A DNA stretch of 20,000 nucleotides from an uncultured virus (IMG/VR IMGVR_UViG_3300045902_000133) (lineage: Duplodnaviria; Heunggongvirae; Uroviricota; Caudoviricetes): the IMG/VR virus record IMGVR_UViG_3300045902_000133. The stretch is one strand, 5' to 3'. Position 1 is the stretch's first letter; the number at the start of each line of letters is the position of its first letter. The position numbers were made by a program, and so were the translations under genes. The notes beneath the pieces are model-generated. The model searched no databases. It saw nothing but the letters and a program-made list of their open reading frames with translations, and was not told the origin of the DNA. Below are positions 5,327 through 13,480 of the stretch, piece by piece.

Positions 5327-5439
5327 ATCGGCCCCACTAGATTTTCTAGTGGGGTCGAGGCGGTGTGTAACGACCGTGTAACAGACGGTTTTGACCCCTT
5401 CCATTCTGTCGAGAATGGGGGTATGTTCATACCATACGA
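5327..5439 (+). repeat. ~113-bp regulatory cassette copy 1 (hairpin + TGTAAC box + promoter) upstream of rIIA
   Basis: Hairpin 5328-5358; TGTAAC at 5366 and 5377; TTCCAT 5399-5404, 17 nt, TATGTT 5422-5427; near-identical to 7629-7741. Confidence 0.9.
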
Positions 5440-5467
5440 AACGAACCCAACCCGAAACGGATTCGAC

Positions 5468-7618
5468 ATGCAGATTATCACCGAAAAGCGAAATGCCACC
5501 GTGGCTGGCATGAAGGCGCAGCGCGAGTTTACCGTCAAGGTCGGTGCGCACATTATGTCCGTGCTCAGCGGCCTTTACAAGAACCCCGTCGATGCTATGG
5601 TTCGTGAATACACCACGAACATGTACGATGCGTGGCTCGCACTCAAGCGCAAGAACCCGAACGCAACCTATACGCCGTGCGAACTTCACCTGCCCACGGC
5701 GTTGTCGCCGTTCCTTGTGTTCAAGGATTACGGCGTCGGCATGAGCTTCGAGACTGTTTGGGAAGTGTATTCCCAGTATGGTAACTCCACGAAGAACGAC
5801 AACAACGACGAAGTCGGTGGCTTCGGCCTCGGCAGCAAGACGGCGTTCTGCTACAACAACGGTCAGCAGTGGACGATTGAAAGCCGCTACAATGGCGAGC
5901 TGATGACGTTCATGGCGTTTGTTGGCGAAGACGGCATTCCGAACATCACGCACGTAACGACCGTGCCGACGAGGGAAGCGAACGGCGTCACGATTCGCAT
6001 TCCGATCCGTCGTGAGCACGTGCAGGACGTTCACGTGGCAGCCCGTAAGTATGTGCCATACTTCCCGATGGACATCGTTGTGCTCAATGCCGATGAGCCG
6101 ATCACGAAGCCGACGTATATCATTTCCGGCAACGGATATGGTATCGATATCAGCGGATCGCATGACTGGCGACGGTGGGGGCGCACCCGTATCATTATGG
6201 GCAATGTGCCCTACGATGTTGACGTACAGCAGTGTGATCTCAGCGGATGGAATCTGCTACAGAACAACGTTGATCTGTATGTGCCGATTGGCACCGTGGA
6301 CATTGTGCCGTCACGTGATGACCTGAAGTATACGGATCGCACGATTGCCTCCGTGAAGGCCGCGTTCGACGCAATGGTGCGTGATCTCGGCGCGGTAGTG
6401 TCTCGCACGATTGATAACGCGCCGACGGAGTGGGCAGCGCACGCGCAGTTTCAGAATATGAACACGCTGCGAGGGCTTCGTGATGTTGTGAAGTCGGTCT
6501 GGTATCGTGGTAAAGAGATTGATACGACGCGCGGCGTCGTGCGCACGGCCGAAGAACTTCTGGCGCTCGACGATACGGCGGAGATCAGTTGCTACGGTGT
6601 CAGCAGCACGGTTCACGGAACGCCAGAAGAGCAGTCCGGCGCAACGATGCGACTGGCTCCGAACCAGCATACGTACCTGATGATTGATGACCTGACGAAG
6701 GGTGCCGCCCGCGTCGCAAAGGGATACTGCTACACGCACCTTGTGAATCGCACCCCGCGAGCGGGGCGGACGCTCAAGTATGGGCATACCATCGGTCACG
6801 TTGTTCTTGTGAAGACGAAGTTGACGAAGCAGCAGCTCAGTGATTTCTTCGGCGGGTTCCCTGTGAACGACATTCTGTTGGCTTCGCAGGTGAGCGGCAA
6901 GGTGAAGCTGCCTGCTGGTCAGAAGGGTAACGACGCACTCTATCGTTTCGACGGTGGTAAGACATGGGGTGCTCGTGTGAACGTGCCGACTGGTGGACCG
7001 TTCTACTACCTCGAGCTGCATCAGGATGTCCACAGCAAGCGTTGGGTGCCTGCATCGTTCGACGCTTCGGACGTTCGTGAACTGCTCACCATTGCCCGTG
7101 ATCTCAAGATTGAAGTCAAGCAGTTGTATGGTATCAAGCACAACGAAGTATCAACGTTTGACGCTTCGGAGTGGAAGCCGCTCATTCCGACGCTGAAGGA
7201 CGCCGCGCAGAAGTTGATTGATGCCGACCCGGCCGCTGCCGTGCGGTTCCAGCGTGAGATCACGCGGCCAATGGTGATGATGCGCAAGATTATCGACGCG
7301 GTTGGCATCCTCGCCGATTTCGCGGATTTCCACGCCGAACTCGCCCAGGTCAACAAGGTGAAGATGAACGAGAACCTTTTGATCGCACAGAAGATTTCTT
7401 CATCTTCGCGTCGTCTGGGCCTCAACGTGGAATGGCCGACCGTTGATAACAACATCGTGCCGTCATTGCAGACGATGTTGGACAAGATCATTGCCAAGTA
7501 TCCGATGATCGGCGTGATGATCGGCATTGCACCTGCGTCAGGTTTCGGCTACGGTGGAACGCAAAACCCGTTTTACCAGTATAAGGATCAGATTACCGAT
7601 TACATCACTAATCGGTAA
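5468..7618 (+). CDS. rIIA: RIIA-like protein (N-terminal GHKL ATPase domain)
   Basis: LSGLYKNP, VREYTTNMYDA, DYGVGMS, GGFGLGSKT, MGNVPY and PSRDDL motifs; lies upstream of rIIB. Start moved to ATG 5468 because the 5363 start lies inside the promoter cassette. Confidence 0.9.
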   Translation: MQIITEKRNATVAGMKAQREFTVKVGAHIMSVLSGLYKNPVDAMVREYTTNMYDAWLALKRKNPNATYTPCELHLPTALSPFLVFKDYGVGMSFETVWEVYSQYGNSTKNDNNDEVGGFGLGSKTAFCYNNGQQWTIESRYNGELMTFMAFVGEDGIPNITHVTTVPTREANGVTIRIPIRREHVQDVHVAARKYVPYFPMDIVVLNADEPITKPTYIISGNGYGIDISGSHDWRRWGRTRIIMGNVPYDVDVQQCDLSGWNLLQNNVDLYVPIGTVDIVPSRDDLKYTDRTIASVKAAFDAMVRDLGAVVSRTIDNAPTEWAAHAQFQNMNTLRGLRDVVKSVWYRGKEIDTTRGVVRTAEELLALDDTAEISCYGVSSTVHGTPEEQSGATMRLAPNQHTYLMIDDLTKGAARVAKGYCYTHLVNRTPRAGRTLKYGHTIGHVVLVKTKLTKQQLSDFFGGFPVNDILLASQVSGKVKLPAGQKGNDALYRFDGGKTWGARVNVPTGGPFYYLELHQDVHSKRWVPASFDASDVRELLTIARDLKIEVKQLYGIKHNEVSTFDASEWKPLIPTLKDAAQKLIDADPAAAVRFQREITRPMVMMRKIIDAVGILADFADFHAELAQVNKVKMNENLLIAQKISSSSRRLGLNVEWPTVDNNIVPSLQTMLDKIIAKYPMIGVMIGIAPASGFGYGGTQNPFYQYKDQITDYITNR

Positions 7619-7850: not shown

Positions 7851-8960
7851 ATGACTGCAACGAACGCTGTTCCTCCGATGATCGTCACCGACACCGGCAT
7901 TACCATCTTTATTGATGGTCAGGTGTTGGTTGCGCCGAACGATCATCCTAACTTCCAGGCCGTCAAGGATGCCATCGCTGCGTCCGATTTCGACAAGATT
8001 CCGGCACTGCTCGATGTTCGCAGCGCGGTCAACCGTTATGTCGGTTCCGTGAACGCTCCTGGTTTCACGATGATCGGTGACTTCCTCGCGCTGGATGGTA
8101 AGCCGTTCACCTTTGAAGTGACTGAAAAGGTGCTCAACATGATTGCCGAGGGTCAGCCCGCCGAACCGATTTACAACTTCCTGCGCAAGGTTCGCCAGAA
8201 CCCGCGAGTTGCTGCACAGGACGAACTCTTGCTGTTCTGCGTCGCCAACAACTTCATGATCCACGCTGATGGTGATATCATCGCCTACAAGAGCGTGCGT
8301 GGAGACTACAAGGACATTCACTCCGGCACCATCCTCAACACGGTTGGTAGCGTGGTCCAGATGCCGCGTCAGGCGGTTGACGATGATCGCGACCGCACGT
8401 GCTCGACGGGTCTGCATTTCGCCAGTTACGAATATGCGAGCACGTGGGCTGGCACGATTGATGGGGTGAACCTTCGCCTTGTCGTGATGAAGATCAATCC
8501 CGCCGATGTTGTCGCCATCCCGAGCGATTACAACAATCAGAAGGGTCGCACGTGGCGTTACGAGATCATCGCGGAAATCACGGGTCGGGGTGGCCCGCTG
8601 CCGAAGCGTGAGGTGTATACCAACAGCGATCTCGGCGTGACGAACAGCACGGATGTTAGTGAGAGTCGTTGGTCGGAGAGTGAAATCCAGCGCAAGAACG
8701 AAGTGCTCAAGGGTTGGCTCGAACGCCAGTCGGAAGTAGACCGTGAGATTGAGTCGATGCAGTCCGACCTCGATGACCTTTACGACCGCATCGCGAGGAT
8801 CAACGATCTCGGCGGTGATGCGCCGGCGCTCGAGGATGAGGCCAACGACATGGAGAACGAGATCGGAGAACTCGCCGAGGAAAGTGGTCGCCTCGCAGAC
8901 AAGATCGCTCGCATCGAGAATGAGATTCGCGATCTCGGCGGCGTTCCGGTCACGGCGTAA
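7851..8960 (+). CDS. rIIB: RIIB-like protein with acidic coiled-coil C-terminal extension
   Basis: DGDIIAYKSV, MPRQAVDDDRDRTCSTGLH and KINPADVVAIPSDYNNQKGR motifs; GAGGA RBS. Confidence 0.9.
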   Translation: MTATNAVPPMIVTDTGITIFIDGQVLVAPNDHPNFQAVKDAIAASDFDKIPALLDVRSAVNRYVGSVNAPGFTMIGDFLALDGKPFTFEVTEKVLNMIAEGQPAEPIYNFLRKVRQNPRVAAQDELLLFCVANNFMIHADGDIIAYKSVRGDYKDIHSGTILNTVGSVVQMPRQAVDDDRDRTCSTGLHFASYEYASTWAGTIDGVNLRLVVMKINPADVVAIPSDYNNQKGRTWRYEIIAEITGRGGPLPKREVYTNSDLGVTNSTDVSESRWSESEIQRKNEVLKGWLERQSEVDREIESMQSDLDDLYDRIARINDLGGDAPALEDEANDMENEIGELAEESGRLADKIARIENEIRDLGGVPVTA

Positions 8961-9701: not shown

Positions 9702-9924
9702 AACCTTCGTTGACCCATAAGCACCTGCTCAGCGACCTGAATGATCTTTCGCCGCCGAGCGATGATCCGTGGAACGAATAACTGGGGTTGCGCCCGCAGC
9801 CCCCTCCACAAACACCAGTCAAAATGGTCACTCGCATTAACTTGCTGTCGGATCTGCCATATCAGGAAGCTGAAGATATGCCGATCTGCTGCTCGCCGGC
9901 GTCCGAAACATATTGGAGCATATA

Positions 9925-10323
9925 GTGCGCAAGACTTTCCTTGTCGTGTTCGGCGTGGATCTCGCCACCAAGCAACTCGCAACTTGGTGGTTGCCATCAT
10001 TCGTAGTATACAACACCGAGATAAGCAAGGTCGGTTTGAGCAACATCGGACATATCGTGTTGACCGTAATGCTCTGCTGGTTTTTTTGGGAGCTTGGTCA
10101 GCGACAGGACATTGCCAATATCAAGCCCTATGCTGCTACAGCGGTCGCTGGATCATTAGCTAATTTGGTGAGCTATGTATCAGATCCACCGGGTGTGCTT
10201 GATTTCATTCCCGTGCCTGGCATTGGCATTGCCAATTTCGCCGATTTTGCAATATGGGTCGGCACAATCGGTGTGGTCTATGTTGTTGCAAGACAAGCAC
10301 TTACGCTACACGCCGGCGTGTAA
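9925..10323 (+). CDS. lspA: divergent lipoprotein signal peptidase II (LspA-like)
   Basis: GTG after GGAG; DLATK (DxxTK), AGSLANL (GxxGN-like), GVLDF and ANFAD carry both catalytic-position Asp residues; four hydrophobic segments. Confidence 0.75.
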   Translation: MRKTFLVVFGVDLATKQLATWWLPSFVVYNTEISKVGLSNIGHIVLTVMLCWFFWELGQRQDIANIKPYAATAVAGSLANLVSYVSDPPGVLDFIPVPGIGIANFADFAIWVGTIGVVYVVARQALTLHAGV

Positions 10324-10379
10324 CGACCGTGTAACATGGGATTTGGGGGCTTGTGGTTTAGTCGCCTCTGGTGTATTAT
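10319..10379 (+). promoter_or_regulatory. TGTAAC box + promoter at the start of the RNA cluster
   Basis: TGTAAC at 10319 (supplies the lspA stop codon) and 10330; TTGTGG 10351-10356, 17 nt, TATTAT 10374-10379. Confidence 0.8.
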
Positions 10380-10464
10380 TTATTTAGAGTAAATGATGAA
10401 CGGTGGTCACCAACCGAAATGGTGACGGACTCTTGACCAGGTATCAAGAGCGGCACCCGTGGTC

Positions 10465-10520
10465 CGTAACAAAAGTGTTACAAAAGTAAGCTTGACCTGA
10501 GACACCGAATGGGTTATCTT
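10465..10520 (+). promoter_or_regulatory. second promoter of the RNA cluster with variant box
   Basis: CGTAAC-N5-TGTTAC 10465-10481; TTGACC 10492-10497, 17 nt, TATCTT 10515-10520. Confidence 0.7.
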
Positions 10521-10605
10521 ACTAACGTTGATTGACAAACGAAACGAGTGTCCTGCCACCGACCGTCGGGACTAATGACGGCTCTCGCGTCCGTCGCTCG
10601 TTTAT

Positions 10606-10677
10606 GGCGCTATCGTCTAGTGGCTAGGACATGAGACTTTCAATCTCAGAACACGGGTTCGACTCCCGTTAGCGTCA
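10606..10677 (+). tRNA. tRNA-Glu(UUC), CCA not encoded
   Basis: Acceptor GGCGCTA/TAGCGTC; anticodon arm TGAGA-CT-TTC-AA-TCTCA; T arm ACGGG-TTCGACT-CCCGT. Confidence 0.95.
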
Positions 10678-10682
10678 CCTAT

Positions 10683-10746
10683 GGTCGATGGGTATGGATG
10701 GGTCATTCGTGGGTCATCCGGACGAGTTCGAGTCTCGTTACGACCA
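10683..10746 (+). ncRNA. tRNA-like RNA lacking a D arm
   Basis: Canonical T arm ACGAG-TTCGAGT-CTCGT; acceptor-like GGTCG/CGACC; single GGATG/CATCC stem in place of the D and anticodon arms. Confidence 0.6.
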
Positions 10747-10910
10747 ATTCGATAAAGAGCTCGGCATCTCTGAAAACTGCCTATAAGAGAATGGCGCTGA
10801 TACTCTTTAATAAACTGCGCAAGTGGCTACCAGTGTGAACGGTGTTGGCGCACTAAGCACGCTCGGTAGAAGCGACCGATTTTGTATAGCGCCAAATATA
10901 CATTATCGGA

Positions 10911-10979
10911 TATCACATGGTCTAACGGATAGGACGGCCCCTGGGGGGGCAGATATGGGTTCGAGTCCCATTGTGATTA
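10911..10979 (+). ncRNA. tRNA-like RNA (Glu/Gln-type body) with 4-nt anticodon loop
   Basis: ATCACA/TGTGAT acceptor; D arm GTC-TAACGGATAG-GAC; GCCCC-TGGG-GGGGC; T arm ATGGG-TTCGAGT-CCCAT. Confidence 0.75.
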
Positions 10980-10983
10980 TAGC

Positions 10984-11037
10984 GGACATAGGAATTACCC
11001 GTCGGATGATCCGACGCAGCCGATCTCGGCGATGTTT
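10984..11037 (+). ncRNA. GGAATTACCC three-way-junction motif, copy A
   Basis: GGACAT/ATGTTT closing stem; GGAATTACCC; GTCGGA/TCCGAC; GCA; GCCG/CGGC. Confidence 0.6.
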
Positions 11038-11051
11038 GACAATCGTTGTGT

Positions 11052-11207
11052 GTGATGCCTGGCCGCCCCAAGGAGGGGTCTGTGATCAGAAACCTGCCAG
11101 TTTCTGGTCACACAGGTTGAGCAGTGGCAGCTGCAATTAGCCATTAACATAAGGCAAAAATCCGGGAAACATCTGAATAGGCGAAACCCGGACATCACCA
11201 CTATTCA
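11052..11207 (+). ncRNA. candidate ~155-nt RNA with kissing loops and pseudoknot
   Basis: GTGATG/CATCAC closure; loops CTGCCA (11094-11099) and TGGCAG (11125-11130) are complementary; TGAATAG (11174-11180) pairs with CTATTCA (11201-11207). Confidence 0.6.
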
Positions 11208-11247
11208 TCCTTAGATCAGAGGTCGAGAAATTCTCGGGGTGATTTAC

Positions 11248-11320
11248 GCTTCGATAGCTCAATTGGCAGAGCAGCTGACTTTTAATCAGTAGGTTACAGG
11301 TTCGACTCCTGTTCGAAGCA
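11248..11320 (+). tRNA. tRNA-Lys(UUU), CCA not encoded
   Basis: Acceptor GCTTCGA/TCGAAGC; D arm GCTC/GAGC; GCTGA-CT-TTT-AA-TCAGT; T arm ACAGG-TTCGACT-CCTGT. Confidence 0.95.
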
Positions 11321-11374
11321 CTAAAGGCTGGAATTACCCGCTGGGTTCATACAGTGCAGCCGAATGGCGGTTAG
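11321..11374 (+). ncRNA. GGAATTACCC three-way-junction motif, copy B
   Basis: GGAATTACCC 11330-11339; GCTG/CAGT; GCA; GCC/GGC; same layout as copy A with different stem sequences. Confidence 0.6.
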
Positions 11375-11464
11375 ATAATCTCCTGTCCTTGCATAAAACT
11401 AACAACGCCAGTAAAGGTCGCTCGATGACAATACTCTAGCGGCCCGTTTGTCATTGGACCGGTA

Positions 11465-11525
11465 TGTAACATCCGTGTAACAACAGCCTAAACCCCTTGT
11501 ATTCAAACTGGTTTGGGTGTATTAT
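11465..11525 (+). promoter_or_regulatory. TGTAAC box + promoter
   Basis: TGTAAC at 11465 and 11476; TTGTAT 11497-11502, 17 nt, TATTAT 11520-11525. Confidence 0.85.
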
Positions 11526-11531
11526 TCCACT

Positions 11532-11786
11532 GTGATAAAGATGATGACATCAAAGCTCATCGTCGTTTCAAGCAACTTCGCCGTGAGGGCAAGTAACATG
11601 GCAGACCATACATTCTGGCGTTCGTGGAACATCATCGGCACCGATCTCAACGGTCGCAAGTGTCCGATTCGGCAGGTCACCATTCCTGCGAGTTACAACA
11701 CCGTGGAAGCGGCATTGCGCTACATCCAGCGCACCGTAAGTGCCACGGTATCTGAAATCGAGGCTGTCCATGATTACCAGCGCTAA
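11532..11786 (+). CDS. hypothetical protein
   Basis: In-frame GTG 6 nt after the -10 box; alternative ATG at 11598. Confidence 0.6.
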   Translation: MIKMMTSKLIVVSSNFAVRASNMADHTFWRSWNIIGTDLNGRKCPIRQVTIPASYNTVEAALRYIQRTVSATVSEIEAVHDYQR

Positions 11787-13165: not shown

Positions 13166-13480
13166 ATGAAAAATCGGGTCGAGCACATGGTGTACGACAA
13201 CGGGTACGAGTCATGGTCCACGTACGACGATCTCGGGAACAAGACCCATTTCCGAGACTCTAACGGATACGAGGAGTGGTCCACGTACGACGAACGCGGA
13301 AACGAAACCCATTTCCGAACCTCCACCGGGTACGAGGAATGGACCACGTACGACGATCTCGGGAACAAGACCCATTTCCGAGACTCTAACGGATACGAGG
13401 AGTGGTTCACGTATGACGAACGTGGAAACAGGATCCCCGTCCGAGACTCTGACGGGTACGAGGAATGGACCACGAACTAG
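13166..13480 (+). CDS. YD-repeat-like protein (four 21-aa repeats)
   Basis: GGAG RBS; GYEEWxTYDxxGNxTHFRDSN units; 63-bp DNA repeat. Confidence 0.8.
   Translation: MKNRVEHMVYDNGYESWSTYDDLGNKTHFRDSNGYEEWSTYDERGNETHFRTSTGYEEWTTYDDLGNKTHFRDSNGYEEWFTYDERGNRIPVRDSDGYEEWTTN

Follow-up and report, generated by a model that had tools for sequence, protein, structure and literature searches.

The plus strand of the DNA analysed here, a window of 20,000 nucleotides from an uncultured virus of the Caudoviricetes (IMG/VR IMGVR_UViG_3300045902_000133), carries at 11048-11201 a predicted structured RNA of about 155 nt that lies between a tRNA-like element (10911-10979) and a gene for tRNA-Lys(UUU) (11248-11321). 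The region is very probably a strand-specific, non-coding structured RNA domain that stands outside the described families. The account that we prefer, and to which we give rather better than even chances, is that 11048-11201 is a selected RNA domain that is transcribed within an RNA-only island, freed by the nucleases that process tRNAs, and stable.

In the fold that we propose, the closing helix P1 would enclose two parts: a short helix, P2, that caps a junction of three hairpins (Pa, Pb and Pc), and a further hairpin, Pd, that is stacked on P1. In the MFE structure the 5' strand of P1 (11048-11057; GUG, a bulged U and then GUGAUG) pairs with CAUCAC followed by CAC at 11193-11201, as it does in the partition function, where the pair probability for 11052-11198 is 0.99; the core of the helix is GUGAUG/CAUCAC (11052-57/11193-98), to which ViennaRNA adds three base pairs (11048-50/11199-201). 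P2, three base pairs of GCC with GGC (11062-64/11153-55), belongs to the MFE structure and is missing from the centroid; Pa (11065-11079, GCCCC/GGGGU with the loop AAGGA) is found in both. Pb, evident from the sequence and from the MFE structure alike, is a 13-bp hairpin with one U-G wobble (11081-11093/11100-11112) and the loop CUGCCA (11094-11099). Pc (11115-11142) is likewise evident from both and comprises six base pairs plus another four to five, with an AA bulge; its upper stem is GCAG/CUGC (11121-24/11131-34), its six basal pairs (11115-20/11137-42) come from ViennaRNA, and its loop UGGCAG (11125-11130) is the exact reverse complement of the Pb loop, each loop being bounded exactly by its stem. 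An A-rich linker (11143-11160), which in the MFE structure includes the 3' strand of P2 (GGC, 11153-55), leads to Pd, a hairpin of six base pairs, UCCGGG/CCCGGA (11161-66/11187-92), again seen in both the sequence and the MFE structure, whose 20-nt loop contains UGAAUAG (11174-80), complementary to CUAUUCA at 11201-07. The hairpins, loops, closing helix and loop complements that an earlier note had read from the sequence are all present where it placed them, and all four of its stems are recovered by ViennaRNA.

Over 11046-11210 the plus strand folds with an MFE of -62.5 kcal/mol and a z-score of -3.70, and none of 200 shuffles was as good; for the minus strand over 11040-11225 the z-score is -1.32, with 21 of 200 shuffles as good. 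This asymmetry is consistent with the five G-U pairs that we counted in the plus-strand model, each of which the opposite strand would turn into an A-C mismatch. Among 1278 natural 165-nt segments of the phage record, which take in the phage's own tRNAs, tmRNA and GOLLD RNA, the energy of the element is in the best 2%.

The natural variation that bears on this fold comes from the contigs of four metagenome runs, which we compared over 10380-11530. A variant strain, about 97% identical, is represented by one contig in each of two of the runs (X8 and X10); these contigs cover 10654-11530 and carry 20-21 substitutions in 877 nt together with 10-13 gap letters. Five differences, common to both contigs, fall within 11046-11210: C11063T, G11154A, an additional A after 11144, T11202C and T11208C. 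In P2 of the MFE structure 11063 pairs with 11154, and the variant turns this C-G pair into U-A; the pair probability of P2 is 0.41-0.42 in the reference sequence, 0.34 with both changes, and at most 0.011 with either change alone. When four random substitutions were simulated, the probability of a double change that keeps a pair was 0.0106, or 0.0041 if the other stems must stay intact. The extra A sits in the A-rich linker, T11202C and T11208C sit in the 3' tail, and the stems are undamaged by all five differences. A selected secondary structure is likely, because the plus strand folds as it does, the change in P2 is compensatory and no stem is broken. The homologs found are limited to the strain level, so that the support for selection consists of one covariation event common to both variant contigs; furthermore, as substitutions are no sparser in the RNA (4 in 165 nt) than in the whole variant contig (20-21 in 877 nt), there is no excess of sequence conservation.

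The two loop complementarities fare differently. The duplex between the Pb and Pc loops, CUGCCA with UGGCAG, is fully Watson-Crick and has an energy of -8.4 kcal/mol. We regard this loop-loop pairing as a plausible candidate, since the two arms are similar (13 bp against 11 bp plus the bulge) and their six-base loops exactly complementary; Pb and Pc are neighbours on one junction, and no difference is listed for either hairpin, loops included, in the sole variant strain available. The sequence UGGCAG recurs in the D-loop/D-stem of the adjacent tRNA-Lys (11264-69), and the Pb loop is therefore equally complementary to that tRNA. The duplex between UGAAUAG of the Pd loop and the CUAUUCA of the tail has an energy of -5.3 kcal/mol. 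This second pseudoknot is weakened in the variant: T11202C sets a C against A11179, uncompensated, and one pair is lost. Moreover, CUAUUCA begins at the last pair of P1 with no linker, and its partner belongs to the Pd loop, with Pd stacked on P1 at the opposite end, so that the tail pairing is hard to reconcile with simultaneous formation of P1 and Pd. On account of the lost pair and the missing linker, the pseudoknot is probably fortuitous, or else mutually exclusive with P1, and CUAUUCA probably takes part in no real pairing.

How often such complementarities arise by chance was gauged by a tolerant measure, applied in the same way to the real sequence and to the controls, in which helices of fewer than 4 bp are pruned and loops widened by 1 nt. 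Loop-loop complements of at least 6 nt were present in 45 of 1500 dinucleotide shuffles and in 37 of the 1278 natural 165-nt segments, complements of at least 7 nt between a hairpin loop and a single strand in 38 of the shuffles and 26 of the natural segments, and both jointly in none of the shuffles and two of the natural segments. Taken singly, each tertiary pairing is unremarkable, at about 2-3% of controls; their joint occurrence is uncommon, yet chance could supply it in a two-strand scan of 20 kb. If the loops are taken strictly as they stand in the MFE structure, the real sequence offers at most 4 nt of loop-loop and 4 nt of loop-tail complementarity, because that structure closes the U11125-G11130 wobble and small pairs inside the Pd loop. 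The earlier note had argued from two independent tertiary pairings to a selected compact fold of a family that it did not recognise. The fold and its lack of a family are supported by the strand-specific energy, the position in a tRNA unit, the compensatory change from C-G to U-A and the lack of an Rfam match; the argument from the pairings finds no such support, as the kissing loops are invariant and a pair of the second pseudoknot is lost from the variant.

With Rfam 15 (4227 models), searched at its gathering scores and again with permissive filters to E 10, the only matches in 10300-11700 are to tRNA, and the best non-tRNA scores that overlap or adjoin the element, E 3.3 and 6.2 with snoRNA models, are noise; the earlier failure to recognise a family agrees with the covariance models. 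A blastn search of 50,697 phage records matched 10500-11700 at tRNAs only and produced nothing but noise with the element as query, and in viral_contigs there were no matches either to an exact 30-mer of the element or to the pattern of Pd with its pseudoknot. The pattern of Pa plus the kissing loops does occur, in 15 stretches of viral_contigs and at least 120 of genome_contigs, and we rejected these stretches as homologs: among the matches listed, their scores with R1, a single-sequence covariance model of the element that distant homologs could escape, are those of chance (best 8.6, 16.1 and 12.5 bits), and the alignments ignore the motif. At 67 loci anchored on rIIB (13 from viral_contigs and 54 from metagenome_contigs) blastn, nhmmer and R1 all returned no match, the whole records of five relatives contain no match to the element, and R1 finds no second copy in the phage record. 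The closest IMG/VR relative, whose rIIB is 44% identical, has a lone tRNA-Glu(UUC) with ORFs directly after it and no comparable island; the rIIB proteins P0002-P0008, at 59-80% identity, represent closer relatives. No description of a comparable small RNA was found in the open-access literature searched. At present, then, the element appears to be an orphan from one phage lineage, outside any described family.

This absence of homologs from every collection searched is one of several observations that would suit a neutral spacer between tRNAs, whose stems and complementarities are either fortuitous or leftovers of decayed tRNA or hairpin sequence; the strain divergence of the element, equal to that of its flanks, the presence of each tertiary pairing in 2-3% of shuffles and natural segments, and the decayed-looking tRNA-like pieces in the island would suit it too. 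We nevertheless consider a neutral origin unlikely. It leaves unexplained a folding energy that no shuffle matched and that is confined to one strand, as well as a compensatory change with a simulated chance of about 0.01 among five differences that break no stem. What unconstrained sequence looks like here can be seen in the upstream spacer at 10984-11008, where there are nine differences in 25 nt between the strains.

The element lies on the plus strand of an island that carries only RNA genes. Upstream of the island stands a promoter-like motif (10319-10380), in which TGTAAC-N5-TGTAACA is followed by CTTGTG (-35-like), a 17-nt spacer and TGTATTAT (-10-like), and the next copy of that motif, located by motif search at 11465-11526, marks the end of the RNA-only unit. 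The first gene is tRNA-Glu(UUC) at 10606-10679 (ARAGORN; Rfam tRNA, 65.7 bits). It is followed at 10682-10746 by a first tRNA-like element, identified through a T-arm repeat family (D1) and its fold and missed by both ARAGORN and Rfam. This element lacks a D arm and is made up of a 6-bp acceptor-like stem, a perfect T-arm (GUUCGAGUC) and an arm with a 4-nt loop in place of the anticodon loop; it also contains the tandem TGGGTCATTCG/TGGGTCATCCG. A second structured spacer, with three hairpins, occupies 10748-10912 (MFE -51.5 kcal/mol and z -3.04, a fold equalled by 1 of 200 shuffles; z -3.48 for 10820-10939 in a sliding scan), and its 3' two-thirds show no variant difference between 10810 and 10918. 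The second tRNA-like element (10911-10979) is a full cloverleaf that ARAGORN reports as 'tRNA-???' and Rfam as tRNA at 45.3 bits; its anticodon loop, inside a G run, is 4 nt long (6 nt according to ARAGORN). In the X10 variant, C10941T together with AAA after 10944 produces a 7-nt loop, and the X8 variant has the sequence of the window, so the length of this anticodon loop is polymorphic between strains. Beyond the element itself comes tRNA-Lys(UUU) at 11248-11321 (ARAGORN; Rfam, 75.7 bits).

The promoter-like motif recurs upstream of plus-strand genes throughout this early-looking gene block in the general form GG-NN-TGTAAC-N5-TGTAACA, about 13 nt, a -35-like CTTG(T/A), 17 nt, and a -10-like TATTAT or TATATT. 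The tandem TGTAAC has 14 copies on the plus strand, between -679 and 19868 in window coordinates, compared with two on the minus strand of the whole 105-kb record, and -35- and -10-like hexamers can be read after 12 of the 14. The motif search places intergenic copies at 1763, 3871, 5366, 7669, 9046, 9685, 10319, 11465, 12521, 13073, 13514 and 19858, with two more in the record at -679 and -183, all on the plus strand. The recurring motif probably represents a class of phage promoters that has a tandem operator or UP-like element upstream, and the island may well form its own transcription unit starting from its copy. Two other candidate signals within the island were set aside. A terminator-like hairpin at 10863-10879 is no more than chance would supply (2 found, 1.9 expected), and the direct repeat GGAATTACCCG that follows both tRNAs is not kept in the variant strain and was therefore given no role.

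In the pathway that we envisage for a selected, stable domain, a sigma-70-like promoter belonging to the island (about 10350-10380) would drive the transcription of a unit made up of RNA genes only: tRNA-Glu(UUC), the two anticodon-less tRNA-like elements, the second structured spacer, the element and tRNA-Lys(UUU). The host's tRNA-processing nucleases would release the element, with RNase P cutting at 11248 and 3' trimming proceeding after 10979, and further trimming back to P1, which joins both ends, would leave a stable small RNA like rnaC and rnaD of phage T4. Co-transcription and co-processing with the tRNAs of the island is most likely. The non-coding character, the strand, the secondary structure and selection on P2 have their support in the present analysis, and transcription, processing and stability are inferred. 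As for its role, our best guess is that the element acts early in infection, alongside the spare tRNAs, as a scaffold or decoy that binds protein or RNA.

The same arrangement could be read in another way, namely that the fold works in cis within the precursor, organising or timing how its two neighbours, the tRNA-like element and tRNA-Lys, are processed, for instance by offering sites for RNase E or RNase P, and is then degraded. The element starts 68 nt past the 3' end of the tRNA-like element and stops 46 nt before the 5' end of tRNA-Lys, and the neighbouring spacer (10748-10912) is likewise structured (z -3.0), so that this precursor may be characterised by structured spacers. We find this quite improbable all the same. 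A five-helix domain of 155 nt far exceeds what the processing of tRNA precursors is known to require, and in the phage's main cluster, with its roughly 45 tRNAs, neighbouring tRNAs often have just a few bases between them, from which it follows that the tRNAs of this phage do not need such spacers.

If the element is instead a stable product, as we prefer, its nearest analogue by context is the pair of T4 RNAs rnaC (species 1, 139 nt) and rnaD (species 2, 119 nt), to which it is not homologous. These too are small RNAs within a phage tRNA cluster and on the tRNA strand; in the T4 record they come directly after tRNA-Arg and are annotated 'small, stable RNA', and their functions were still called unknown in a 2022 omics paper on T4 (PMC9697503). 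Like the element, rnaC is far better folded than its shuffles (z -4.57). Yet the folds differ, and there is no similarity in sequence or structure; with filters off, the best R1 score in the T4 region is 7.3 bits (E 0.3) and does not fall on rnaC or rnaD as a whole. At its end T4 rnaC has a T-arm like that of a tRNA (GGUUCGAAUCC) together with an acceptor-like stem, whereas the element has no T-arm motif, T-arms being present instead in the two tRNA-like elements of the island; and the T4 RNAs are annotated as stable, whereas the stability and processing of the RNA described here are putative.

The other RNAs of comparable setting are GOLLD and ROOL, ornate RNAs of phages and prophages whose function is described as unknown and which are 'often near tRNA islands', and whose tertiary and quaternary contacts, intermolecular ones included, use kissing loops, according to a preprint (10.1101/2024.12.08.627333). 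At over 400 nt they are three to five times larger than the element, and the Rfam models of GOLLD and ROOL gave no match to the region at E up to 10. The T4 RNAs and GOLLD/ROOL are its closest analogues, in context only.

It is tempting to carry the comparison further and to imagine that the element represents a new class of small self-assembling phage RNA in an early counter-defence island, with the Pb and Pc loops pairing between molecules, although we consider this a long shot. Were it true, the RNA would form closed dimers or daisy-chained rings, a miniature of the quaternary kissing-loop bridges from which ROOL and GOLLD nanocages are built, and the phage itself carries GOLLD. The early-expressed RNA-only island beside rIIA and rIIB would then replace or shield tRNAs cut by host anticodon nucleases, its tools being a spare tRNA-Glu(UUC), a spare tRNA-Lys(UUU) and two tRNA mimics that lack an anticodon loop. 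Quite apart from such speculation, phage tRNA islands host structured RNAs, among them T4 rnaC and rnaD, GOLLD and ROOL, whose roles remain unsolved decades after their discovery, and a small, tractable member of 155 nt would lend itself readily to structure probing and to questions of function. The setting adds to its value, with anticodon-less tRNA mimics, spare genes for tRNA-Glu and tRNA-Lys, and both GOLLD and tmRNA in the same phage; as the element is known from one phage lineage, that value is that of a lead and not of an established class.

A compact multi-helix junction with possible tertiary contacts also invites the thought of a ribozyme or a ligand-sensing RNA, in which the kissing loop and the pseudoknot would form an active site or binding pocket, and the earlier note had likened the region to both. 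Self-cleaving HDV-like ribozymes have been described beside phage tRNAs, and in the purine and lysine riboswitches neighbouring junction arms of similar length carry complementary loops, an arrangement that the element recalls. We think it very improbable that the element is either. Rfam ribozyme and riboswitch families, HDV-like, hammerhead and twister among them, gave no match at E up to 10 with permissive filters. The next gene is a tRNA, so that there is neither a downstream ORF to control nor a terminator to act as an expression platform, and the pseudoknot is weakened in the natural variant. From the purine and lysine riboswitches the element differs in the same missing match and platform, in its junction, and in loops that are six fully complementary bases.

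That the region acts not as RNA but as a small protein gene or as a DNA-level inverted-repeat site for a protein is scarcely credible, for although there are ORFs of 68 aa (minus strand, 10995-11201) and 105 aa (plus strand, 10823-11140), and the 13-bp inverted repeat starts with TGTGA and ends with TCACA, both overlapping ORFs are ruled out as coding by frame-breaking indels between the strains (a 1-nt insertion at 11144 in the first and a net -2 from indels at 10984, 10990 and 11001 in the second), neither has a Pfam match at E up to 1, the plus-strand ORF runs through the tRNA-like gene, the folding is strand-asymmetric with G-U pairs, and the two covarying positions are separated by 91 nt, a distance in keeping with an RNA helix but not with a DNA site. 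A Shine-Dalgarno-like AAGGAGG is present in Pa (11070-76), with a GTG 5 nt further on (11082) that opens a 12-codon frame to TGA at 11118-20. Because AGGAGG is rare in this phage (nine copies on the plus strand of the 105-kb record), we judged AAGGAGG a by-product of the hairpin, probably incidental to the CCCC/GGGG stem, and rejected it as the start of a small ORF.

The phage that carries the island is a large one with rIIA and rIIB genes. The window is the reverse strand of part of a linear IMG/VR record of 105,488 bp, with a CheckV completeness estimate of 48%, and DNA of the phage is found in hot-spring and microbial-mat metagenome runs; among the sequencing runs listed as containing the region there is no RNA-seq run. 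It carries rIIA (5363-7618), which is at most about 34% identical to the rIIA of cultured phages, and rIIB (7851-8960); its plus-strand genes are otherwise mostly small and uncharacterised. The rest of the record holds about 45 tRNA genes, a tmRNA, a GOLLD RNA and a group I intron, all on the minus strand of the record, the last three at 2341-2686, 7903-8369 and 9806-10007, respectively, of record segment 40001-60000. The GOLLD RNA scores 198 bits and has a tRNA called within its span, the intron scores 64.9 bits, and the tmRNA tag is ANPALALAA. The phage invests heavily in structured RNA. Among its roughly 45 tRNA genes is one with the anticodon CUA, reported as 'Pyl' by ARAGORN, which is an amber suppressor-type tRNA. 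Downstream of the island, in a block of uncharacterised small genes, a 104-aa ORF (13166-13480) has a weak Pfam match to the RHS repeat (E 9.3e-06, 26.4 bits).
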